12,167 bases of DNA from contig JBDGSM010000034.1 of the NCBI GenBank assembly GCA_042217545.1, positions 1 through 12,167 of the forward strand, in the 5' to 3' direction. Under the pieces are notes generated by a model. It was not told the origin of the DNA. It saw nothing but the letters and a program-made list of their open reading frames with translations, and did not search any database. The DNA comes from Candidatus Nanohalobium sp. (GTDB taxonomy: Archaea > Nanohalarchaeota > Nanosalinia > Nanosalinales > Nanosalinaceae). Made by a program: the position numbers and the translations under genes. Shown here one piece after another: positions 372 through 11,983 of this stretch. The stretch's first letter is position 1; every line of letters starts with the position of its first letter.

Positions 372-453
372 GAAGAAGTAGTTGAGGCCTTAAGTTCTTT
401 AGAGCTACCGGGTTCCGGAAAGTTTTACAAAAGTCGAGATCATGGGAAGATGC
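372..453. promoter_or_regulatory. Divergent promoter region shared by nucS and radC
   Basis: 82-bp head-to-head gap. AT-rich GAAAGTTTTACAAAA (418-432) lies about 25-30 nt before the radC ATG at 454. CTTAAG (389-394) lies about 20 nt before the nucS ATG on the minus strand. No clear SD for either gene, so leaderless transcripts are inferred. Confidence 0.45.
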
Positions 454-1116
454 ATGGATTATACTATCCAGGAGCTGCCGGAGGAGGAGAGGCCTCGTGA
501 GAAACTTGAGGAGCTTGGCGCCGGGGATATGACTTCTGTGGAGCTTCTGTCTATAATCCTGAGGACAGGTACGCAGGGGAAGAACGTAAAGGAGCTGGCC
601 TCGGAGATCCTGAACCAGCACTCCGTTTCTGAACTCGGGAACCAGGGCCTTGAATCTTTGAAAAAGTTTCAGGGCATCTCAAGGGTGAAGGCAGGGCAGC
701 TGAAGGCGCTGGGCGAGCTGTCGAGACGGGCGGAGAGAACTGAGAGGGAGAGTATAGAGGATCTCTCTGATGTAAGGTCCCAGGTCGGCGATATGAAGTT
801 CCTGGACTCTGAAGTTCTGCGCGTCTTCTACCTGAACTCCGGTAATGAACTGGTTGGTGAGGAGGAGTTCGACGGAGGGGTCTCAAACGTAGGCCTTGAC
901 GTCCAGGAGATCTTCCGTTCCGCTATCGAGTCGAAGGCCTCTGCCGTGATCCTGGCGCATAACCATCCCTCCGGTGAGGCTTCTGCTACGGAACAGGATC
1001 TTGGGACGACTGAGGAGGTTATCGAGGCAGGTGAGAATCTTGGGATAGATGTGCTGGATCACGTGATTGTTGGAGAGGAGGTTTTCAGTATGAGAAGTGA
1101 GACAGGCCTTTGGTAG
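454..1116 (+). CDS. radC: RadC family (UPF0758) JAB/MPN-domain protein
   Basis: N-terminal IQELPEEERPREKL and ELLSIILRTG, HhH-like FQGISRVKA, and JAB metal motif E...ILAHNHPSG...D...VLDHVIVG. Start placed at the second ATG (454, MDYTIQEL); ATG 442 is the alternative. Confidence 0.92.
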   Translation: MDYTIQELPEEERPREKLEELGAGDMTSVELLSIILRTGTQGKNVKELASEILNQHSVSELGNQGLESLKKFQGISRVKAGQLKALGELSRRAERTERESIEDLSDVRSQVGDMKFLDSEVLRVFYLNSGNELVGEEEFDGGVSNVGLDVQEIFRSAIESKASAVILAHNHPSGEASATEQDLGTTEEVIEAGENLGIDVLDHVIVGEEVFSMRSETGLW

Positions 1117-1159
1117 TATTCTTGGCCTCTTTAATATGTTTCGGCTTCTGGGGCGACCG

Positions 1160-1213
1160 TATTTAAAGTTTACTTGGGCCTGTCTATTTGTATCTGTTCT
1201 ACCCGCGCGAGGT
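1160..1213 (+). promoter_or_regulatory. Putative TATA box and Shine-Dalgarno of the RNA polymerase operon
   Basis: TATTTAAAG at 1160-1168. GAGGT at 1209-1213 lies 10 nt before the rpoH ATG at 1224. Confidence 0.6.
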
Positions 1214-1223
1214 ACAATAATCA

Positions 1224-1460
1224 ATGGCTATGGACGTACGTGACCACAGGGCTGTTCCGGAACACAGGAAAATGGAAGAAGACGAAGTTGAGGACCTTCT
1301 CGAGAAGTATAGTACTGAGAAGGATAATCTCCCGAAAATTGAACGGACTGATGCTGCTTTGAAGCAGATGGAGGCCGAGGAGGGAGATGTTATTGAGATA
1401 ACTCGTAGCAGTCCTACGGCGGGTAAAACCAACTACTACCGTGTAGTTGTTGACAAGTAG
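1224..1460 (+). CDS. rpoH: DNA-directed RNA polymerase subunit H (Rpo5)
   Basis: 78 aa with H-x-x-VPEH, LPKI-x-x-x-D and GDVIEITRSSPTAG...YYRVV; first gene of the canonical archaeal rpo cluster. Confidence 0.97.
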   Translation: MAMDVRDHRAVPEHRKMEEDEVEDLLEKYSTEKDNLPKIERTDAALKQMEAEEGDVIEITRSSPTAGKTNYYRVVVDK

Positions 1461-1484
1461 AGCTTTGAAGGTGTCCCCTGGAAA

Positions 1485-2942
1485 ATGAATGAAGAATTCC
1501 TAGAGCAGTTGATCGATAAGAACCTTGTAAAACATCAAATTGAGTCCTACAACCGTTTTGTGGAGGAGCGTGTTCAGGCTATCCTTAATGAGGTCGGGAG
1601 TATCGAGCCTGAGCTTCCTGACGGTGAGGATCTTGTTATAAAAATAGTTAATGTTGAGATCCAGAGGCCTGAGATTAACGAGGCTGACGGTTCTGTAAGA
1701 GAGATTGCTCCGAGAGAAGCTCGTATGCGTGACTTGACTTATTCTTCTGAGATCAAGGTCGAGATGACTCCGATCTTTGAAGGTGTTAAGCAGGATACTG
1801 AAGAGGTCACGATTGGTGAGATCCCTGTCATGGTAGGTTCAGACCTGTGCTGGACCAGTGACTGGGACGAGGAAGAGATGAGAGCGCACGGCGAGGACCC
1901 CAAGGACCCTGGCGGTTACTTCATCATCAACGGTTCGGAGAAGACTTTGATTGCTATGGAGGAGCTTGCGGACAACAAGCCAGTCTACCAGAAAGACGGC
2001 GAGGAGGAGAAATGCCGTATCAACTCGGAGAACGAGGGATACGTTCAGAGGCACGTCCTGAGGAGGGGCGAGGATATTGTCAACATCTCATTTGCTAACG
2101 TGAAGAAGACTCCCGCCGTTGCACTTGTAAGAGCTCTCGGCTACGAGACCGATAAGGAGATTGTAGAAGCTATAGGAGAAGAATACTCTTCAGATGTTTA
2201 CCTGAACCTTTACGAGGTCGACGCCTCCAACCAGGAAGAGGCCTTCGAGTATGTAGCGAACCAGGCAGGTATCACTTCCGATATTGAGGAGAGAGTTGTA
2301 AGCATCCTGGACGAGTACCTGCTCCCTCACCTGGGACAGGAGCCAGAAGCCAGAGAGGACAAGGCAGAGTTCCTGACAAACATGATAAGAAACACAATCG
2401 CCCTCGGAAAAGGCCATATAGATGAGGACGATATCGACCATTACGCTAACAAGAGGCTGAACACTGCAGGCGAACTTCTCGAGATGCAGTTCAGATCTGT
2501 TTTCCTTGGAAAATGGGGTCTGGTCGCACGTATGAAGTACAACTTCCAGAAGAGCGCAAAGCGTGGAAGACTTCCTTCCCTACAGAGCACGATCGTCGCC
2601 GACACGCTCACCAGCCAGATCATGGGAGCTATGGCGACAGGAAACTGGGTCGGCGGCAGAACAGGTGTCTGCCAGGGCCTCGAACGTAACAACCGTATCA
2701 AAACTCTAAGCCATTTGAGAAACATTGTCTCACCTCTTTCCAGCGACAGGCAGCACTTCGAGGCAAGAGACCTTCACCCAACTCACTGGGGACGGATCTG
2801 TCCGATCAAGACGCCGGAAGGTATGAACATCGGACTCAGGACCCACCTCGCGATGTCCGCTAACGTTTCAAGAGGTATGAGCGAGATGGACAGGAACAGC
2901 CTGAAAGCCAAGCTGGAAGAGGTAGGGATCGACGCAAGGTGA
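1485..2942 (+). CDS. rpoB2: DNA-directed RNA polymerase subunit B'' (Rpo2 N-terminal half)
   Basis: Motifs HQIESYNRF, PREARMRDLTYS, GEDPKDPGGYFIINGSE, DDIDHYANKRL, ATGNW, LSHLR and ARDLHPTHWGRICP-x-x-TPEG. SD AGGTG at 1469-1473. Confidence 0.97.
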   Translation: MNEEFLEQLIDKNLVKHQIESYNRFVEERVQAILNEVGSIEPELPDGEDLVIKIVNVEIQRPEINEADGSVREIAPREARMRDLTYSSEIKVEMTPIFEGVKQDTEEVTIGEIPVMVGSDLCWTSDWDEEEMRAHGEDPKDPGGYFIINGSEKTLIAMEELADNKPVYQKDGEEEKCRINSENEGYVQRHVLRRGEDIVNISFANVKKTPAVALVRALGYETDKEIVEAIGEEYSSDVYLNLYEVDASNQEEAFEYVANQAGITSDIEERVVSILDEYLLPHLGQEPEAREDKAEFLTNMIRNTIALGKGHIDEDDIDHYANKRLNTAGELLEMQFRSVFLGKWGLVARMKYNFQKSAKRGRLPSLQSTIVADTLTSQIMGAMATGNWVGGRTGVCQGLERNNRIKTLSHLRNIVSPLSSDRQHFEARDLHPTHWGRICPIKTPEGMNIGLRTHLAMSANVSRGMSEMDRNSLKAKLEEVGIDAR

Positions 2943-2948
2943 TTGAAA

Positions 2949-3020
2949 ATGAATACTATGACTGACAAATCCGAAGCAAAGTTTGCAAAGCTGAAGAAGG
3001 CCTTCAGAGGTGTTTTCTAG
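2949..3020 (+). CDS. Putative 23-aa intercistronic mini-ORF (MNTMTDKSEAKFAKLKKAFRGVF)
   Basis: ATG at 2949 follows the SD-like AAGGTGA that contains the rpoB'' stop. TAG at 3018-3020 ends 1 nt before the rpoB' ATG at 3022. Translation is not demonstrated. Confidence 0.45.
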   Translation: MNTMTDKSEAKFAKLKKAFRGVF

Positions 3021-3021
3021 A

Positions 3022-4821
3022 ATGACAGATGTTTTCCTTGATGGAGAGATCCTGGGGGAGATTGACAGCCCTGAGCAAGTCAGAGAGCAGCTTATCGAGA
3101 AGAGAAGGGACGGAGACATTGGAGAGGAAGTATCCGTCTACTACGCAGAGGACAAGGACGAGATCAGGATAAACACAGACTCAGGACGTGTACTGAGGCC
3201 TGTGATCATTGTTGAGGACGGCGAAGCTCTTCTCAACGAGGAAGATGAGCAAAAGCTGGTTGAAGGTGAGACCTCTCTCGAAGAGTTCGAGGAAGACGGC
3301 ATGATCGAGTACCTCGACGCTGAAGAGGAGGAGAACGCTTACGTTGCGATGGATCGTGACGAGATCACGGACGAGCATACTCACCTGGAGATCGATCCGG
3401 AGATCATCAACGGGCTTTCAGCTTCAATAGTTGTTTATCCTGAGCACGCGAGAGGAGACCGTGTTAACTTCGGTGCAAAGATGTCCGGTCAGGGCCTTGG
3501 AATGCCTTCCAGGGAGCTTCACCAGCGCTTTGACACGCGTGGGAACATCCTGACGTACGGTCAGAAACCTATAGTTACTACAAACACTTTCGATACTGTT
3601 CTGGGCGAGCATCCTATCGGACAGAACATGGTTATCGCCCTTGCCTCTTTCGACGGCTACAACATCGAGGACGCTATTATCATGAACGAGTCATCGATGC
3701 ATAGAGGTGTTGGACGTTCCGCCTACATGAGGACTTACCAGACAGAGGCGCAGCGTTTCTGGGGAGGCCAGAAAGACGAAATAGAAGTCCCTGACAAGGA
3801 CGTCAGAGGATATAGAAGAGAAGAGGCCTACAACCACCTGGACGAGGACGGTATCGCGAACCCGGAGACAAATGTAGAGTCGGATGACGTACTTGTCGGT
3901 AAAACCAGCCCTCCTAAGTTCCTCGGCTCCGGAGGCGGAGAAGAGGTAAAGATGGGTCTTGCAGACCGCAGGGAAACCTCCCTGACTGTAAGACACGGAG
4001 AGCAGGGTAAAGTCGACACCGTTCTCGTTTCCGAGACAGGAGACGGTGACAAACTGATCAAGGTAAAGATGAGAGAGTACAGAGTCCCTGAACTTGGTGA
4101 CAAGTTCGCTACAAGGCACGGACAGAAGGGAACAGTCGGAATGTTTGTTCCTGATCAGGACATGCCTTTCACGAGCCAGGGGATCACTCCAGACATGATC
4201 CTTTCGACTCACGCTATCCCTTCCCGTATGACAGTGTCGCAGATCATAGAGCTCATGGCCGGAAAGGTTGGAGCTCTAAGAGGCGATCCTGTGGACGGTA
4301 CTCCTTACCACAACGAGTCCAAGGAGAAGATGAAGGAGCAGCTGGAAGAACTTGGATTCGAACAGACAGGAAAAGAGACCATGTACAACGGACTGACAGG
4401 CGAGGAAATGGAAGCAGAGATCATGATAGGCCCAGGATACTACCTGAAGCTAAGCCACATGGTTGGAGACAAGGTCCACGCAAGAGCAAGAGGACCTGTC
4501 ACCCTGCTCACAAAGCAGCCTACAGAAGGAAGAAGCCAGGAAGGAGGCCTGCGCCTCGGAGAGATGGAAAAGGATGTCTTCGTGGGACACGGAGCCTCGC
4601 TCCTGCTTAAGGAAAGGTTCGGAGCTGACAGTACAGAGATCAAGGTATGTGACAACTGCGGCGAGATCGCCGTGGAGGATAGAGAGGAAAACAGGACTTA
4701 CTGTCCGAACTGCGACTCCTCGAGCGTAGAAGAGTCGGAGATACCGCATGCGTTCCTCCTGCTAATGAACGAGCTAAAATCCATGATGATGGATACGGAG
4801 CTCGAGCTTGAGGAGGAATAG
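3022..4821 (+). CDS. rpoB1: DNA-directed RNA polymerase subunit B' (Rpo2 C-terminal half)
   Basis: Motifs DSGRVLRP, GYNIEDA, GDKFATRHGQKG, HAIPSRMT, LSHMVGDKVHARARGP, QPTEGRSQEGGLRLGEME and a C-terminal CDNC...CPNC zinc site. Start moved to ATG 3022 because the GTG at 3010 is part of the SD GAGGTG (3007-3012). Confidence 0.97.
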   Translation: MTDVFLDGEILGEIDSPEQVREQLIEKRRDGDIGEEVSVYYAEDKDEIRINTDSGRVLRPVIIVEDGEALLNEEDEQKLVEGETSLEEFEEDGMIEYLDAEEEENAYVAMDRDEITDEHTHLEIDPEIINGLSASIVVYPEHARGDRVNFGAKMSGQGLGMPSRELHQRFDTRGNILTYGQKPIVTTNTFDTVLGEHPIGQNMVIALASFDGYNIEDAIIMNESSMHRGVGRSAYMRTYQTEAQRFWGGQKDEIEVPDKDVRGYRREEAYNHLDEDGIANPETNVESDDVLVGKTSPPKFLGSGGGEEVKMGLADRRETSLTVRHGEQGKVDTVLVSETGDGDKLIKVKMREYRVPELGDKFATRHGQKGTVGMFVPDQDMPFTSQGITPDMILSTHAIPSRMTVSQIIELMAGKVGALRGDPVDGTPYHNESKEKMKEQLEELGFEQTGKETMYNGLTGEEMEAEIMIGPGYYLKLSHMVGDKVHARARGPVTLLTKQPTEGRSQEGGLRLGEMEKDVFVGHGASLLLKERFGADSTEIKVCDNCGEIAVEDREENRTYCPNCDSSSVEESEIPHAFLLLMNELKSMMMDTELELEEE

Positions 4822-4834
4822 AGGTGAATAAAAA

Positions 4835-7300
4835 ATGAAGAACGTAGATAAACTCGACTTCGGAATCATGAATTCGGAAAAACTCCAGAAAATAGCTGTC
4901 AAGGAGATCGACAAGGCAGAAGTCTACGACGCGGACGGATACCCTGTCGAAGACGGAGTTATGGACCCGGCGCTCGGAGTCATCGACCCAGGAATGACAT
5001 GCCAGACATGTGGCGGAAGAATCAGAGAATGCAAAGGACACTTCGGAATCATCACACTCTCCAAACCCGTCGTCCACGTACTCTACGCCAAAAAGGTGCG
5101 CGACCTCCTCAGATTCTCCTGCAAGGAATGCCAGACACTTCTGATGAAGGACGAGGACAAGCCTTACAGAAAATCAAACAGGATGAGCGAGTGCCCGGAA
5201 TGTGGCTACGAGGTGGAGGACGTCAAGCTTGACAAGCCTTACAGCTTCAGAGAAGGAGGCGAAGAGCTGAAGCCAGATGAGATAAGAGAAAGATTCAAGG
5301 AGATACCGGACGATATAGCAGCCAAGATAGGTATGGAAGGCGGAAGGCCTGAAGACCTTATACTCACACACATTCCCGTACCTCCTGTAACGATGAGGCC
5401 TTCGATCACGCTCGACACCGGAGAGAGAAGTGAGGACGACATCACTCACAAACTGGTAGACGTTATCCGTATCAACAAGCGTCTCCAGAACAATATCGAG
5501 ATCGAGGCCCCTGATTTCATTATCGACGACCTGTGGGAGCTTCTTCAGTACCACACTGCTACCCTGTTCTACAACGATCTTTCAAGCGTTCCACCGGCGA
5601 GACATCGTTCCGGTAGAAGCCTGAAATCTCTTATTGAGCGTGTGCAGGGAAAGCAAGGCCGTTTCAGGCAGAACCTGATCGGTAAACGTGTTAACTTCTC
5701 CGCTCGTACGGTCATCACGCCAGATCCCAACATCGGGATCAACGAGGTCGGAGTACCAGGACTGATCGCCAGGAAACTTACGATACCGAAGAAAGTTACT
5801 GAAAGAAACTACGATCAGGCCATGGAATGGATCGAGAACGGTCCTGACACGCATCCGGGCGCAAACTACGTGTTCCAGCCGGACGGAAGCAGAAGAAGAC
5901 TAACTGACGAAAACATCGAAGAGATCAAGGAGGCAATCGAGCCTGGAGAAGGCTGGAAGGTCGAAAGACACCTTATGGACGAGGACACTGTCCTGTTCAA
6001 CAGGCAGCCTTCACTGCACAGAATGTCGATCATGGCACACAAAGTAAGAGTACTACCTTACAGAACATTCAGGCTCAACCTGAACGTCTGCGCACCTTAC
6101 AACGCGGACTTCGACGGAGACGAGATGAACCTGCACGTACCACAGACAGAAGAAGCAAGAGCCGAAGCGGAGGAATTGATGAAGGTCCAGGAGCACGTCA
6201 AATCCCCTAAGATGGGAGGACCTATCGTAGGAATGCTTCAGGACTTCGTATCAGGCCTCTACCTGTTGACACAGGAGGATAAGACTATCTCCCGTGAAAA
6301 GGCCTTTAACCTGCTTGCCGAATCTGGTGAGCACGAGAAGGATCTTCCTGAAGGCGAAAAGGTTTCAGGTAGAGACGTTGTATCGCTATTCATACCCGAG
6401 GACATCTCCCTGACAATCAACGAGGGAGATTCCGATGAAGTGGTTATCGAAGATGGTAAGCTTGTCAAGGGAGTTCTGGATGAAGATGCTCTCGGAGACT
6501 ACGGTGGAGAGATCATCCAGCAGCTTGACATAGAGTACGGAAGTGATAAGGTCGCAGAGTTCCTAAACCGTGTTTCACGTGTAGGAGCTATCTTCCTGAC
6601 ACACCGCGGATTCTCGATAGGCCTTGACGACCTCGAAGTCCCTCAGGAAGCAACCGATGAAATCCATGAAATTATCGATGAAGCTCTTGACGATGCAGAG
6701 GAACTGCTTCAGGAGTACGAACAGGGTAAGATGGAGGCCATCACAGGTCAGACCCTAGAAGATACAAGAGAGATCAAGGTCTCCAAACGCCTGAACGAGG
6801 CGAACACGGATATCGGAGACGTTATCGACCAGTACTTCGACGAAGACTCCTCTGCCTACGTCATGGCAGACTCGGGAGCAAGAGGTTCTATGCAGAACGT
6901 TACCACGATGGCCGGAATGCTTGGACAGAACTCGGTCAGGGACACCAGAATCGAGAGAGGATACAAGAACCGCACGCTCTCCCATTTCAAGAAAGGAGAG
7001 CTCAGTGCGAAGTCGAAAGGATTCGTATCCTCCAGCATCCTGGAAGGCCTTGACGCACAGGAGATGTTCTTCCATCAGATGGCACAGAGAAAAGCTCTTG
7101 CGGACAAGTCTCTTAACACGAAGACATCCGGATACATGTATAGACGTGTATCGAACGCACTGCAGGACCTGAAGGTCGAATATGACCAGACCGTCAGAAA
7201 CGCACAGGGAGATATTATCCAGTTCAGGGCAGGAGAAGACGGTATGGATCCTCAAAAATCGGATAGAGGCGTCATATCAACCAACATCAGTACAAATTAG
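4835..7300 (+). CDS. rpoA1: DNA-directed RNA polymerase subunit A' (Rpo1 N-terminal part)
   Basis: Catalytic [14 protein letters not shown]...C-x-GHFG zinc site, [27 protein letters not shown] and SGYMYRR. SD GAGGTG at 4821-4826. Confidence 0.98.
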
Positions 7301-7314
7301 AGGTGATCAAAGAG

Positions 7315-8433
7315 ATGACAAACGAACAGATTACATGGAAGGAAAGAGCAGAAGAACTTCCGGAAAAGTATCAAGGCCTCGACCTTGACAAGGAAACACG
7401 TGAAAAGCTCCATGAGCGGTATGAGCAGATGCAGTACGAGCCTGGAGAAGCTATCGGCATCGTTGCTGCGCAGTCACTCTCTGAACCAGCTACACAGCTG
7501 ACTATGGAGACGTACCACCAGGCAGGAGGCGCACAGGTCGACCTTACAGCAGGACTACCACGCCTGATCGAGATCGTGGACGCACGTAGAGAACCTGATA
7601 CACCGTCCATGGAAGTCTACCTCGCAGAGGACTACAACAACGAGGAAGATGCAAAAAAGGTAGCAAGAAAGCTCAGAGAGATCAAGTTCGAAGACCTTGT
7701 AAAGCAGGATACGATTGATATAATGCAGCTGAACGTTGAATACGTTCTGAACGAGAACCTGCTGAGCGACTACGATGTAGACATGGAAGACGTGAAGACC
7801 AGGATCAAAGACGACGTCAGGAAGGCAAAGGTCACTATCGACGACAACAAAGTAATCCTTGAATCCTCAGAGGACGACTACGACCTCAGAGACTTGAAGG
7901 ATCTGAAAAACGATACAGAGGACGCAAGAATCAAAGGCCTGAAAGGAATAGAGCAGGTTGTAGTTAACGAAGAAGACGATGACTGGCAGCTCCAGACCGC
8001 AGGCACAGCCCTGAGGAAGACTCTGAAGCTTGAAGAGGTCGACGACACAAGGACCACAAGCAACCACCTCTTCGAGATCAAACGTGTTCTCGGAGTCGAG
8101 GCCTTGAGACGCAAAATCATAGATGAGATCAACGAGACACTGCAGAAGCAGGGCATCGGAATAGACGACCGTCACATCATGCTCCTTTCAGATATGATGA
8201 CAAAGGAAGGCGAGCTCCAGGGAACCACGAGGTACGGAATCGTCGGGAACAAGGAATCGATGATCGCACGTTCCGTATTCGAGGAGACGAAGAAACACCT
8301 GCGTGAAGGAACCCTCAGAGGAGAGGAAGATCCTCTGGAAGGAGTCGTCGAAAACATTGTCACAGGTCAACCTGTTCCTGTCGGTACAGGAGCTATCGAC
8401 CTGAAGCCAAAGTTCGGCACGGAGGACGAGTAA
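7315..8433 (+). CDS. rpoA2: DNA-directed RNA polymerase subunit A'' (Rpo1 C-terminal part)
   Basis: [34 protein letters not shown] and [17 protein letters not shown]. Start moved to ATG 7315 because the GTG at 7303 lies in the SD GAGGTG (7300-7305). Confidence 0.97.
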
Positions 8434-8458
8434 AAACCTGTCCTCCAACACCGACCCC

Positions 8459-8466
8459 TTTATAAA
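8459..8466 (+). promoter_or_regulatory. Putative internal TATA box upstream of nusA
   Basis: Consensus-like TTTATAAA in the 89-bp gap between rpoA'' and nusA, about 57 nt before ATG 8523, flanked by an inverted repeat. Confidence 0.6.
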
Positions 8467-8522
8467 ATCTGGGTCGTGTATAAGTATACAGACTGAACGT
8501 ATACAGTTTCTAACGTGATAAA

Positions 8523-8945
8523 ATGGCAACAGCAACTTATGACACAGAAATGATCCGCATGATCAACATGTTCGAATCACTCACAGATGTCGAGGCAAGA
8601 GACTGCCTGATCAAGGACAACGAGGCCTACTTCATCGTACCTGAAGGAAAGGCAGGAATGGCGATCGGAAAAGGAGGAAAAATCGTCCAGAAGGTACAGA
8701 GCCAGCTAGGCAAGGATGTCAAGATCTACGAGTACAACGACAACCTCGGAGCATTCATCAACAACCTTGTCCCAACCGACCTCAGAGGAGTAGACATCAA
8801 GGAAGAAGGAGGACGCAAAACAGTTACAATCAGCGTCCCAAGAGACAACAAAGGCCGAGTAGTCGGAAAAGACGGCAGCAAGATCGACGCCATCAGAGAC
8901 ATCCTAGCAAGGACACACAACGTCGACGACGTAACAGTCGAATAG
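8523..8945 (+). CDS. nusA: Archaeal NusA-like KH-domain transcription factor
   Basis: 140 aa with FESLT...DC and two KH GxxG loops (AIGKGG, VVGKDG); canonical position after rpoA''. Confidence 0.93.
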   Translation: MATATYDTEMIRMINMFESLTDVEARDCLIKDNEAYFIVPEGKAGMAIGKGGKIVQKVQSQLGKDVKIYEYNDNLGAFINNLVPTDLRGVDIKEEGGRKTVTISVPRDNKGRVVGKDGSKIDAIRDILARTHNVDDVTVE

Positions 8946-9111
8946 AGAACATTTATCTGCGGATCAAAGCACATCTAGGCAAAAAGTTTGGATAAGAGGC
9001 CTAACTACAGAACTATCCTTTTAACAGGTAGAGTTAATTCAAGGCCTTTCGCTGCTGATCGGACACAGTGTCACCTTTTTGTGTCATTTACCCCCAGTCT
9101 ATACTGAGGAG

Positions 9112-10692
9112 ATGAACCGCAACCCTGTCAAACAGGATATAGCAGATGCAGAAAGGCTGGAAGAGATTGTCAGAACTTCATCAGAGTACGAGGCCTCACA
9201 TCTTGTAAAGAAACTAGGCCTCACCAAGCATCTTCCTCTAAGATACAGACATAAAGAGGAGAAACCTTCTCCTGAAAGACTTCGTGAACTTCTTGAAGAG
9301 TTAGGCCCTACATTTGTCAAGTTCGGACAGATAATGGCTCAGAGGCCTGATATCGTACCTGAAGACTATCTTGAGGAGTTGAAGAAGTTGCAGGACGACG
9401 TTAAGGCCTTTCCAGGCGAGGAATCGAAGAGTATAGTTGATGAGGAGATAGGACTTGATGTTTTTGACGAGTTTAACGAGGAGCCGGTTGCAGCTGCTTC
9501 CATAGCACAGGTTCATGAGGCCTGGATCGACGGTGAGAAGGTTGCGGTTAAGGTTAGAAGGCCGGGCATCAAGGATCAGATTACTACGGATCTGGATTTG
9601 ATGAGGTATATGGCTGCGAAAGGTGAGAAGCATTCTGAGACATTAAGGGATATACGGGTCAGTAAACTTGTGGAGGAGTTCGCGGACTGGACTATGGATG
9701 AGCTTGACTTGACAGAGGAGGCTATGAATGCTCAGGCCTTCAAGAAGAACCTTGAAGATGAGGAGGACGTGAAGGTTCCCGAAGTTTATCCTGAGAACAC
9801 TACTGAGAAAGTTCTTGTCATGGAGTTTGTAGAGGGCACAAAATCTACTAACAACGAGAAGATAGATAAGTTGGACCTGGATCGGGAGAAGATCGCTGAG
9901 ACCGGTATCAGGTCAGGCCTTAAACAGACTATCAGAGACGGTCTCTTCCACGCAGATCCACATCCATCGAACTTCCTGATACAGGAGGACAACACCCTTG
10001 TCTACCTTGATTTCGGGATGATGGGCAAGATCACGCCGAAGACCAAGGATCAGATGGGCCTTATCCTGATGCATACCTTGAACGAGGATATTGAAGGGGC
10101 GATGTCGCTGATCGAGGACATGGCCTATATAGAAGACGATGCCGACCTTGAAGGCCTGAAAAAGGATATAGAGGAGAAGATGCTCGAGCTGAGGAACAGC
10201 ACCTTGAAGCAGAACAGCATCACTTCCTCAATGCTTGAGATTACAGTAAGTGCTTCGGAGAAAGGAGTTCACATGCCGTCATCATTCGTCCTTGTAAGCA
10301 AGACCCTTCTGACACTTGAATCCATAGGCCTGAACGTGTATCCTGAGTTCGAGATCCAGGAAGAATATCAGGACATGGCGAAGGATATGCTGCTGAAAAA
10401 TAACGGGCCAAAAGATATCATGGAATCGTTCGCGATTGACCTAGTTCAGAACAAGGAACTGATCTCCAAGGCACCTAGCAAGATAAATAGGACTCTTGAA
10501 AACATAAACAAGAAACAGCAGCATCAGGTTATACAGGAAAAGGCCTCTGGCAACAGTAAAGCAATTATCATTACAGGCCTTCTGGTTTCGTCATCGATAT
10601 TTGCGTTCAACTCTTTCCCAAGTCAGTGGTCAAATCTTGTGGCGTTGACCGAGATCATACTGGCGTTCTTCCTCATGTACGAGGTACTGTAG
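9112..10692 (+). CDS. AarF/ABC1/UbiB family atypical protein kinase with C-terminal hydrophobic helices
   Basis: [10 protein letters not shown] (KxGQ), [26 protein letters not shown] and LDFGM; two hydrophobic segments at the C-terminus. Start placed at ATG 9112 rather than TTG 9079. Confidence 0.93.
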
Positions 10693-10729
10693 ACGGTTTA
10701 GGTCGAACAACCTTTGTTGGGGAAGTGGG

Positions 10730-10737
10730 TATAAAAA
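10730..10737 (+). promoter_or_regulatory. Putative TATA box of a leaderless rps12-rps7 transcript
   Basis: TATAAAAA 27-34 nt upstream of the rps12 ATG at 10764, with no SD in between. Confidence 0.6.
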
Positions 10738-10763
10738 GGTTAACTTCGATTTCTGTGTTACGT

Positions 10764-11186
10764 ATGGGACTGTACAACGCACGTAAAATGAGGAAGAAAC
10801 GCCAGCAGTACCGCTGGAGTGACAAGGATTACAAGCGAAGAATGCTTAATTTGAAGGAGAAGGCAGACCCGCTAGAAGGATCTCCACAGGGTCGTGGAAT
10901 TGTACTTGAAAAACGTATTATCGAGGCTAAGCAGCCTAACTCCGCACTGAGAAAATGTGTACGTGTACAGCTCCTCAAAAACGGTAAACAACTAACTGCT
11001 TTCGTTCCAGGAGACGGAGCGATCGATCACATCGACGAGCACGACGAAGTACTGATCGAAGGTATCGGAGGAGCAGACTCCGGACCAAAGGGAGACATCC
11101 CAACGGTACGCTACAAAGTCATCAAAGTCAACGGAGTAAGCCTGGAAGAGCTCGTCGCAGGAGAACAGCAGAAGCCAACAAGGTGA
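10764..11186 (+). CDS. rps12: 30S ribosomal protein S12 (uS12)
   Basis: MGLYNARK..., [40 protein letters not shown] and GDIP-x-VRYKV. True start ATG 10764 (140 aa); the ORF-track extension to 10626 overlaps the kinase gene. Confidence 0.98.
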
Positions 11187-11190
11187 TAAA

Positions 11191-11247
11191 ATGACTAAAA
11201 TCGCAGATTTTATGGATTCAAAGAAAACACGAGGTGTTTTCGAATAA
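11191..11247 (+). CDS. Putative 18-aa intercistronic mini-ORF (MTKIADFMDSKKTRGVFE)
   Basis: ATG at 11191 follows AAGGTGA, which contains the rps12 stop. Its TAA (11245-11247) overlaps the rps7 ATG as TAATG. Translation is not demonstrated. Confidence 0.45.
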   Translation: MTKIADFMDSKKTRGVFE

Positions 11248-11873
11248 TGACAGACGCAGCAAAGCTCGACCTTGAAGACGAACTTCTCACAATGGGACGC
11301 TGGGACGCATCAGAGGCCCAGGTCTCCGACGACGGACTTGTAAGATACATCAGCCTGGAGAACATCCTGGCACCAAGATCCAAGGGAAGACACGTCGAGA
11401 AACAGTTCTACAAGGCAGACGTCCCGATCGTGGAAAGACTTCTCAACAGACTCTACGTCGCAGGACACAGAGGACAGAAGCACTACATCACATCCGGAAT
11501 CAACGCTGGAGACAGTGAAAAACTCTGGAACGTAATCGAAGACGCCTTTGAAATAATCGAAGAAGAAACCGGCGAAAACCCTGTACAGGTACTCGTTGAC
11601 GCTATCGAAAACTCCTCACCAACTGAAGAAGTAGTCACATACCAGAGAGGAGGAGTCCGTGCAAGAAAAGCAGTTATCGTATCACCTCAAAGACGAGTAG
11701 ACCTGGCACTCAGACTACTCGCACAGGGCGCATACGAGAAGCGCCTCACAGACTCTGACTCAGCGGCACAGACAATCGCCAATGAGATCATCGAAGCAAG
11801 CAACGGCAACAGCGACATCAGAGCAGTCAGAGAAAAGGAAAGAAGAGAAAGAGAAGCAGAAGGCGCACGCTAA
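11247..11873 (+). CDS. rps7: 30S ribosomal protein S7 (uS7)
   Basis: GRH-x-x-KQF-x-KA-x-VPIVERL, ENPVQVLVDAIENS-x-P-x-EE, VSPQRRVDLALR and a C-terminal KE...ER-x-A-x-x-AR. SD GAGGTG at 11231-11236. Confidence 0.97.
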   Translation: MTDAAKLDLEDELLTMGRWDASEAQVSDDGLVRYISLENILAPRSKGRHVEKQFYKADVPIVERLLNRLYVAGHRGQKHYITSGINAGDSEKLWNVIEDAFEIIEEETGENPVQVLVDAIENSSPTEEVVTYQRGGVRARKAVIVSPQRRVDLALRLLAQGAYEKRLTDSDSAAQTIANEIIEASNGNSDIRAVREKERREREAEGAR

Positions 11874-11955
11874 GGCCTTCACAAACCTTTTCCCACATAT
11901 CCTCCCTCCCTATTTCATTTCCCCCTCCAGTTATCTCATAACATTTCAGTTCTCA
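11874..11955 (+). terminator. Probable termination region after rps7 (pyrimidine-rich, G-poor tract)
   Basis: CCTTTTCCCACATATCCTCCCTCCCTATTTCATTTCCCCCTCC... directly after the stop. Archaeal terminators are typically T/pyrimidine tracts; the exact 3' end is unknown. Confidence 0.4.
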
Positions 11956-11983
11956 ACTACCGTTTAGAGGCCTCAAAAACCCG

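Follow-up and report, generated by a model that had tools for sequence, protein, structure and literature searches.

AGGCCT in a nanohaloarchaeal genome: a strongly over-represented palindrome and likely archaeal counterpart of the cyanobacterial HIP1 repeats

Iterated palindromes have been described in cyanobacteria, namely, the highly iterated palindrome HIP1 (GCGATCGC) and the alternate HIPs GGCGCC, GCsGC and rCCGGy (Elhai 2015, PMC4390886; Xu et al. 2018, PMC5861425), and for HIP1 a methylation-dependent gain in transformation or recombination is described (bioRxiv 10.1101/2024.09.10.611283). DNA uptake sequences are represented by the uptake signal sequences (USS) and DNA uptake sequences (DUS) of Pasteurellaceae and Neisseriaceae (PMC2817400; PMC7811141). 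The word AGGCCT, which is StuI-like, is described as methylated and cut in Alcanivorax borkumensis (PMC12128166). The present analysis concerns AGGCCT in a DNA stretch of 12,167 nucleotides from Candidatus Nanohalobium sp. (contig JBDGSM010000034.1 of assembly GCA_042217545.1), hereafter the window, in its source genome and in the genomes of relatives. The source genome, G000, comprises 1,032,751 bases in 82 contigs and is 92% complete; the window is its contig C28. RpoA' of G000 shows 64% identity to a record of Ca. Asbonarchaeaceae (phylum Ca. Nanohalarchaeota) and 45-52% to haloarchaea, and the window DNA occurs in salt-lake metagenomes. No paper on an AGGCCT excess in archaea was found in a literature search outside of which most subscription journals lay.

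The window contains exactly 36 copies of AGGCCT by count, dispersed from 385 to 11973 without strand assignment (2.96 per kb). Dinucleotide shuffles of the window gave 2.68 copies on average and 8 at most, and none of the 200 reached 36; the original prediction, made on this DNA alone, had put the numbers at about 36 against about 3 expected. Its other counts were borne out as well. AGGCCT was said to form more than half of about 60 GGCC sites, the rest being mostly one-mismatch variants; it accounts for 36 of 61, and 22 of the other 25 are AGGCCN or NGGCCT. Sites were noted in all codon phases and six in gene gaps; 30 are coding, with 6, 11 and 13 in the three frames, and the other six lie between genes or touch a gene end (385, 2998, 8997, 9042, 11873 and 11968). 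The part 7683-10748 is matched without difference by contigs of two public salt-lake runs, which argues against an assembly slip and gives no independent support, as either run may be the source sample.

In the whole genome of G000, 3,699 copies were found (3.58 per kb), present on all 82 contigs at 1.3-5.9 per kb. The observed to expected ratio (O/E) is 15.2, 13.0 and 5.1 under Markov models of order 0, 1 and 2, respectively; AGGCCT is the most over-represented palindrome of the genome, the next 6-mer palindrome reaching 2.5 at order 1, and 58% of all GGCC sites are AGGCCT. In the 1,126 genes called by the analysis's own gene caller, 3,123 coding sites were counted against 598 (maximum 644 in 20 shuffles) after within-gene synonymous shuffling. 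The three frames contain 531, 1051 and 1541 sites against 125, 202 and 271 in shuffled genes, each frame being raised 4-6-fold, and the excess left after the synonymous shuffle, all three frames considered, is 5.1-6.4-fold. Spacers of 10-300 bp contain 232 sites against about 13 expected, at a density of 3.8-4.6 per kb. The flanks of the word show a weak bias only, at positions 1-4. On the single-contig chromosome of the relative G003 the density is even, with 152-235 sites per 50 kb. Ribosomal RNA of G000 is not enriched (5 copies in 4.4 kb vs 3 in the low genome G021), and none of 18 tRNAs contains the word. The excess survives the synonymous shuffle and extends beyond the window, the two points on which the original prediction had said that it could be refuted. 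The excess is real, strong and genome-wide, and the HIP1-like, DNA-level iterated palindrome proposed there for this archaeon is supported.

An opportunity was defined as a place where the amino acids permit AGGCCT, and the expectation was taken from codons outside opportunities. In G000, 2,671 of 3,449 opportunities (77%) are filled against 363 expected (odds ratio 29), and in G003, 3,023 of 3,697 (odds ratio 48); these odds imply a strength, ln(odds), of 3.4-3.9 per site, varying among lineages. Site density had been said to follow constraint. This held for density itself, which is 2.6 per kb in conserved genes against 3.4-3.8 in variable genes; it did not hold for fill, which is nearly equal across conservation classes of G000 (0.73-0.83; 56 of 69 in short basic conserved genes), the lower density in conserved genes being due to fewer opportunities there. 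The pressure toward AGGCCT reshapes protein sequences: in the proteins of G000 the ratio is 1.41 for Arg-Pro vs 0.78 for Pro-Arg, 2.25 for EGL vs 0.57 for DGL and 1.83 for [KE]A[FSYCW] vs 0.71 for its reverse, and none of these asymmetries is present in the low genome G021.

Recently acquired islands are poor in AGGCCT. In an island of the high genome G019 (205-233 kb; island labels assigned by eye) only 4 of 44 opportunities are filled, and the genes of an island in G003 are mostly empty of the word (island and gene labels by eye). The signature also flags recently acquired DNA in these genomes. At a type I restriction locus of G003 (679121-684904, loci L157-L158; labels by eye) the hsdR-like gene contains 6 sites and the hsdS- and hsdM-like genes none; the location of these two genes without sites beside an ameliorated hsdR-like gene suggests their recent replacement.

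Gain and retention of sites were counted in three close genome pairs, in both directions each, where 4-fold sites are 47-50% identical and only 75 opportunities in 27 genes are shared. On this small basis, 106 of 121 sites were retained against 26 expected, and 15 of 29 were gained against 1.9 expected. In the pair G000 and G003 the 4-fold sites are nearly saturated (37% identity); only 627 of 1,625 aligned G000 sites are also sites in G003, with an odds ratio of 3.5 at shared opportunities. Gain and retention are both in excess and positions are not fixed; therefore, a force favours the word wherever it is possible, acting on gain and on loss. Shared sites do not have better-conserved flanks, and flank protection was rejected. 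Among the 40 listed of 314 variants in matched metagenome contigs none lies inside AGGCCT, a number too small for a polymorphism test.

Pair spacing was analysed at distances up to 400 bp and in 50-kb bins. Copies of AGGCCT show mutual repulsion at distances shorter than about 30-40 bp. For in-gene pairs of G000 the ratio to a uniform null is 0.17, 0.47, 0.57, 0.75 and 0.81 for separations of 6-11, 12-19, 20-29, 30-39 and 40-59 bp, respectively; the same deficit below 30 bp is present in G003 and G019, and five control words show no consistent short-range deficit. The deficit at 6-11 bp is partly a matter of amino-acid geometry, 0.47 being found also in the opportunities of G021. With the same opportunities refilled at random as the null, the ratios are 0.48, 0.64, 0.82 and 0.88 in G000 and 0.47, 0.79, 0.84 and 1.07 in G003 at 6-11, 12-19, 20-29 and 30-39 bp. 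In G000, opportunities no more than 20 bp from another site are filled in 55 of 102 cases, and those more than 60 bp away at a rate of about 0.82 (Fisher p 6e-10), and fill near sites is also reduced in G003 (Fisher p 2e-9). Half-sites are depleted at short range as well. An exception was found at exactly 12 bp, where hairpin-like spacer pairs make up 7 of 17 pairs in G000 and 13 of 26 in G003. Selection against hairpins was rejected as the cause of the repulsion, generic GC-rich inverted repeats being at 0.94-1.18 in two high genomes. A phase of 10-11 bp among site pairs was rejected too, its p value being marginal (0.043) and a control word giving a stronger signal.

The comparison with relatives and haloarchaea called for in the original prediction was made on 70 genomes of the phylum and on rpo loci of other archaea. 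Twelve genomes are high (about 2-4.8 per kb), namely, all three of genus g1, all three of g18, four of five of g21 and two of six of g2, where the other four are low; G046 is intermediate (762 sites), and 57 genomes have at most 0.7 per kb. In the larger RpoA' tree, a quick tree with six rows left out in which seven of the high genomes were placed and the other five were not, these seven and G046 are located in one 16-row clade (Shimodaira-Hasegawa-like approximate likelihood ratio support 96), interleaved with low genomes. An earlier 30-row RpoA' tree most simply requires 4 changes of the trait, of which at least 2 are forced by well-supported branches, and adding the low genomes of g2 increases the number of changes. 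G060 (140 kb) contains 45 coding sites vs 21.5 +/- 3.8, a 2.1x excess, and G021 contains the word at 0.58x. Accordingly, the trait is graded and labile: strong, weak (2x) or avoided among close relatives. The excess in G060 is equal at old and new opportunities (2.1-2.5x), which does not polarise gain versus loss. All 80 other archaeal rpo loci are without an AGGCCT excess, and 27 rpo loci of Halobacteria contain 55 copies vs 73 expected. The signature of the host was therefore rejected as the source of the word.

Among the strongest avoiders are G021 and G017, with 97 and 73 copies. An NgoPII-family endonuclease gene adjoining a C5 methylase gene was found in only these two of the 70 genomes, both low (L002:1456-3375 in G021 and L001:1456-3355 in G017); the C5 methylase is intact, the methylase-endonuclease pair shows 75% identity between both genomes, and the methylase of G021 is M.HaeIII-like (E 2e-95 to PDB 1dct). 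We take these HaeIII/NgoPII-like enzymes to be specific for GGCC on the basis of their family. In G021 as a whole (L073-L121), avoidance of ACGT (O/E 0.25) is stronger than that of GGCC (0.44).

Like the HIPs, AGGCCT is a palindrome of the restriction-site type that is hyper-abundant in every frame as well as in spacers, and its O/E of 13-15 is close to the 15.5 described for GGCGCC in Calothrix D253. Both AGGCCT and HIP1, as described, are conserved beyond codon choice, and AGGCCT is patchy among relatives, as are the alternate HIPs in their published descriptions. The bias of one-off words to the terminal bases, a feature of HIPs, is clear in G019 and partial in G003 and G000, where it concerns AGGCCC only (AGGCCG is at 0.68 in G000). 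The differences are the following: AGGCCT is another word from another domain of life, being neither GCGATCGC nor a derivative of CGATCG/GC-methyl type and not cyanobacterial; its density of 3,580 per Mb exceeds the range of about 500-2,500 per Mb described for alternate HIPs; the alternate HIPs are described with a cognate methylase and none was found for AGGCCT; and AGGCCT shows repulsion at 30-40 bp.

As in USS and DUS, sites of AGGCCT also arise by point mutation at flexible positions (PMC2817400; PMC7811141), and the encoded peptides are raised, up to about 2x (PMC2817400). Newly acquired DNA and rRNA are described as poor in uptake sequences, some of which form close hairpin pairs in spacers; AGGCCT shares both features, and the finding that uptake is not increased by another USS close by (PMC7811141) parallels the redundancy inferred for AGGCCT. 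In contrast, the described USS/DUS core is 9-10 bp, asymmetric and accompanied by a flanking motif, while AGGCCT is a 6-bp palindrome with a weak flank preference; 17% of USS are reported within 30 bp of another (PMC2817400; PMC7811141), whereas close AGGCCT pairs are depleted; and no ComEC was found in 5 genomes.

In relation to type II restriction, AGGCCT is a StuI-like word with the core GGCC of HaeIII/NgoPII, and such an enzyme pair is present in the relatives G021 and G017, which avoid GGCC and AGGCCT; the high genomes, in contrast, are enriched, and no such system was found in them. Chi is a short over-represented word tied to recombination, asymmetric and strand-skewed; palindromic AGGCCT cannot be strand-skewed. 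Thus, AGGCCT works like HIP1 and uptake sequences yet belongs to neither family, because what defines them, a cognate methylase in one case and an asymmetric core with ComEC in the other, was not found for it.

We tentatively favour, at somewhat below an even chance, a molecular drive in which AGGCCT is kept and regained through a methylation-independent DNA-binding protein biasing homologous recombination or repair. A putative protein would recognise AGGCCT independently of methylation, and the site-bearing copy would tend to act as the template. The half-site AGGCC may be the unit read, the palindrome serving both strands, and the repulsion may correspond to the stretch covered by the protein (about 30-40 bp), within which a second site would add little. 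The bias would act via recombination or repair and not via fitness. We infer the reading by a protein, the AGGCC unit, the footprint basis of the repulsion and the recombination or repair route. Drive is preferred over a selected binding site because of the lability of the trait, which is easier to reconcile with a by-product than with an essential function. A narrower form is possible but on the unlikely side: a conserved protein of DNA binding or recombination, covering about 30 bp, would convert alleles toward AGGCC(T) without methylation, and small changes of the protein or an arriving GGCC restriction system would switch the drive to strong, weak or reversed within the family.

Several results weigh against the drive. 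No AGGCCT-reading protein was found, and 15 candidates or families fail to track the trait. The Mre11 gene with adjacent Rad50, for example, was found in 5 of 41 genomes, is missing from the high genomes G019 and G022 and is present in the low genome G014. ComEC (PF03772) was found in none of 5 genomes by a search positive in 10 of 14 controls; a drive by bacterial-type uptake would therefore be without visible machinery. Drive and weak selection are not separable by the tests made here, as both predict excess gain, retention and footprint repulsion, and the gain and retention counts rest on only the small set of shared opportunities given above.

Candidates were drawn from 79 proteins that G000 shares with G003 and that G021 lacks or has only in weak form; a Pfam scan covered 75 distinct counterparts in G003, and the distribution of 6 of the 79 across genomes was determined. 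This screen has a flaw, as the low reference G021 has a GGCC restriction system and may hold the driver yet be low. The graded trait may also rest on residue changes and not on gene presence. Besides Mre11, the following candidates were rejected: a second family-B polymerase, missing from the high genome G019 and present in the low G014; a DnaG-like primase and a small helix-turn-helix protein, each in 5 of 5 genomes; NucS, in high and low genomes alike; a membrane OB-fold protein and an Ogt-like protein, both present in the low genome G061; a SWIM protein and Mrr, which do not track the trait; an AbrB-like protein, in 41 of 70 genomes, which matches the trait within g2, but is present in many low genomes and missing from the high G058; HhH-GPD glycosylases, in 69 of 70; and histones, in 70 of 70, of which 12 alignable sequences from 5 genomes showed no high/low difference by eye.

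Some observations concern the same gene families. The Mre11/Rad50-like pair (G000:C12:128-3116) and the operon of the second family-B polymerase (C37:1863-5787) are patchy in the family. HhH-GPD glycosylase genes adjoin C5 methylase genes at G010:C77:2117-4096 and G010:C6:2869-5036, an arrangement reminiscent of that of Mig in T:G repair. An endonuclease III-like gene at about 12,600-13,400 of L321 (G060:C7) is frameshifted, possibly through a sequencing error.

A close rival, although we consider it on the unlikely side, is that AGGCCT is under weak selection as a binding site of flexible position for a protein that organises the chromosome or protects the DNA (for example as a self tag or a phasing anchor of histone chromatin), with a small gain for each uncovered site. 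The even density along G003, the excess retention of sites and the universal presence of histones agree with this, as do the repulsion distance, which is near the 30 bp described per archaeal histone dimer (PMC7776873), and the conservation of HIP1 beyond codon choice (PMC5861425). Against it, close relatives manage without AGGCCT even inside g2, the aligned histones show no high/low difference by eye, the 10-11 bp phase is marginal, and the AbrB-like candidate has the distribution given above.

A methylation ratchet after Elhai's HIP model, in which a methylase undetected, host-supplied or since lost marks GGCC or AGGCCT and repair copies the methylated strand, is improbable. One-offs at the terminal bases are raised (2.3-2.8x in G019; AGGCCC 2.4x in G003 and 1.4x in G000) and most internal one-offs are at 0.5-0.9, a pattern predicted by the model as described (PMC4390886). 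GGCC methylases circulate in the family, the M.HaeIII-like enzyme of G021 being an example, and four HIP1-rich cyanobacteria likewise have no recognisable cognate methylase. Transfer of methylation between nanohaloarchaeon and host has been proposed (PMC11001535). On the other hand, C5 methylase was found in none of G000, G001, G002, G003, G019 and G023, six of the seven high genomes then known, three of them single-contig, while G022 has one; N6/N4 methylase above the cut-off was absent from G001 and G003, and none tracks the trait. No cognate methylase was found in G000, an assembly of 92% completeness, a StuI-type N4-methylcytosine enzyme not having been searched for by sequence. Among 11 methylase-like or motif-bearing proteins of G003, type II and orphan-methylase scores in PADLOC were no better than E 3.6e-6, and the motif screen of G000 and G003 gave weak matches only, save a type I hsdM-like gene in a G003 island that is absent from G000. 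The two genomes with a GGCC system are among the strongest avoiders, the flanks of shared sites show no added conservation, neighbours of the T:G type show no specific depletion in G000 (AGACCT 1.17), and the Halobacteria loci are without excess. Elhai's model saturates at about 1 site per kb (PMC4390886), against 3.6 per kb here. The published nanohaloarchaeal methylome reports GDGCHC, and GGCC was found at no word start in the main texts (PMC11001535, PMC10266531). The methylation-linked repair suggested by the original prediction is thus not supported.

That AGGCCT is written by a pure mutator, or by a preference at the level of codons, codon pairs or RNA, is very improbable and already largely refuted: GGC, GCC, CCT and AGG are common codons in G000 and a few 12-bp pairs form hairpin-like structures in spacers, but the excess survives synonymous shuffling in three frames and is present in spacers, a gain-only mutator fails to explain the retention, and neither rRNA nor tRNAs are enriched.

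The features of the window itself are as follows. The 5' part of nucS, encoding the EndoMS mismatch endonuclease and cut by the contig end (3..371, minus strand), is given for context only; all subsequent genes are on the plus strand. A site between nucS and radC is intergenic (385..390, no strand). The radC-family (JAB) gene (454..1116) has 4 sites, at 490 (Arg-Pro frame), 891 (x-Gly-Leu), 935 (Lys-Ala-Ser) and 1104, and rpoH (1224..1460) has none. Sites are present in rpoB'' (1485..2942; 1665 and 2239), between rpoB'' and rpoB' (2998..3003, intergenic, no strand), in rpoB' (3022..4821; 3196, 3824 and 4545), in rpoA', the tree marker (4835..7300; 5345, 5396, 6253, 6300, 6619 and 7045), in rpoA'' (7315..8433; 7374, 7935 and 8099) and in a nusA-like gene (8523..8945; 8623). 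Two intergenic sites, 8997 and 9042, are located in the gap between nusA and the kinase gene (8997..9047, no strand). The UbiB/ABC1-family kinase-like gene (9112..10692) contains 11 sites, at 9191, 9216, 9343, 9404, 9518, 9734, 9915, 10152, 10326, 10541 and 10575; within the rpo-rps operon it is flanked by nusA and uS12, and its orthologue is at the same place in G003 and G060. The genes of uS12 and uS7 (10764..11873) have no site in either body. Site 11873 overlaps the last base of the uS7 stop codon and site 11968 is intergenic, downstream (11873..11973, no strand). The counts given in the original prediction, 11 sites in the kinase gene, 4 in radC and none in rpoH, uS12 and the body of uS7, match these.

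Other words and loci also deviate. G000 strongly avoids CTAG (O/E 0.24) and CTTAAG, the latter being at 0.23 of the shuffle null; avoidance of CTTAAG extends to G003 and G019, and CTAG is not avoided in the low genome G021 (0.82). CTCGAG exceeds its dinucleotide expectation 3.2-4.4-fold in the rpo loci L415, L382, L371 and L424 of three Natrialbaceae-type records and Saliphagus (94 vs 21, 71 vs 20, 69 vs 20 and 56 vs 17), which may reflect Leu-Glu codon use or another iterated palindrome of haloarchaea. The viral contigs L198, L270 and L243 (36% G+C) contain 8-13 dispersed AGGCCT sites vs 1.2-1.7 expected, an excess partly built in by their choice for a triple-site pattern; of 80 loci examined among the matches listed for this pattern in viral contigs, none reached 3 distinct sites per kb. 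Giant open frames were found at G000:C9:32587-57504 (8,305 residues) and G019 256299-282941 (8,880 residues), and probably correspond to the giant surface proteins described for nanohaloarchaea (PMC10266531).

The hoarding of restriction-type palindromes in some prokaryotes has been an open question since HIP1, for three decades, and the leading models rely on a methylase. In the archaeal genomes of 1 Mb analysed here, a signal of similar or greater density is present without a detectable methylase, and AGGCCT is likely an archaeal counterpart of the HIP1 repeats. The strong, weak and avoided states among close relatives, together with a measurable exclusion distance of 30-40 bp, make the reader protein findable and drive versus selection testable. 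If true, the drive proposed would be a methylation-free, sequence-specific molecular drive in archaea, strong enough to rewrite proteins.

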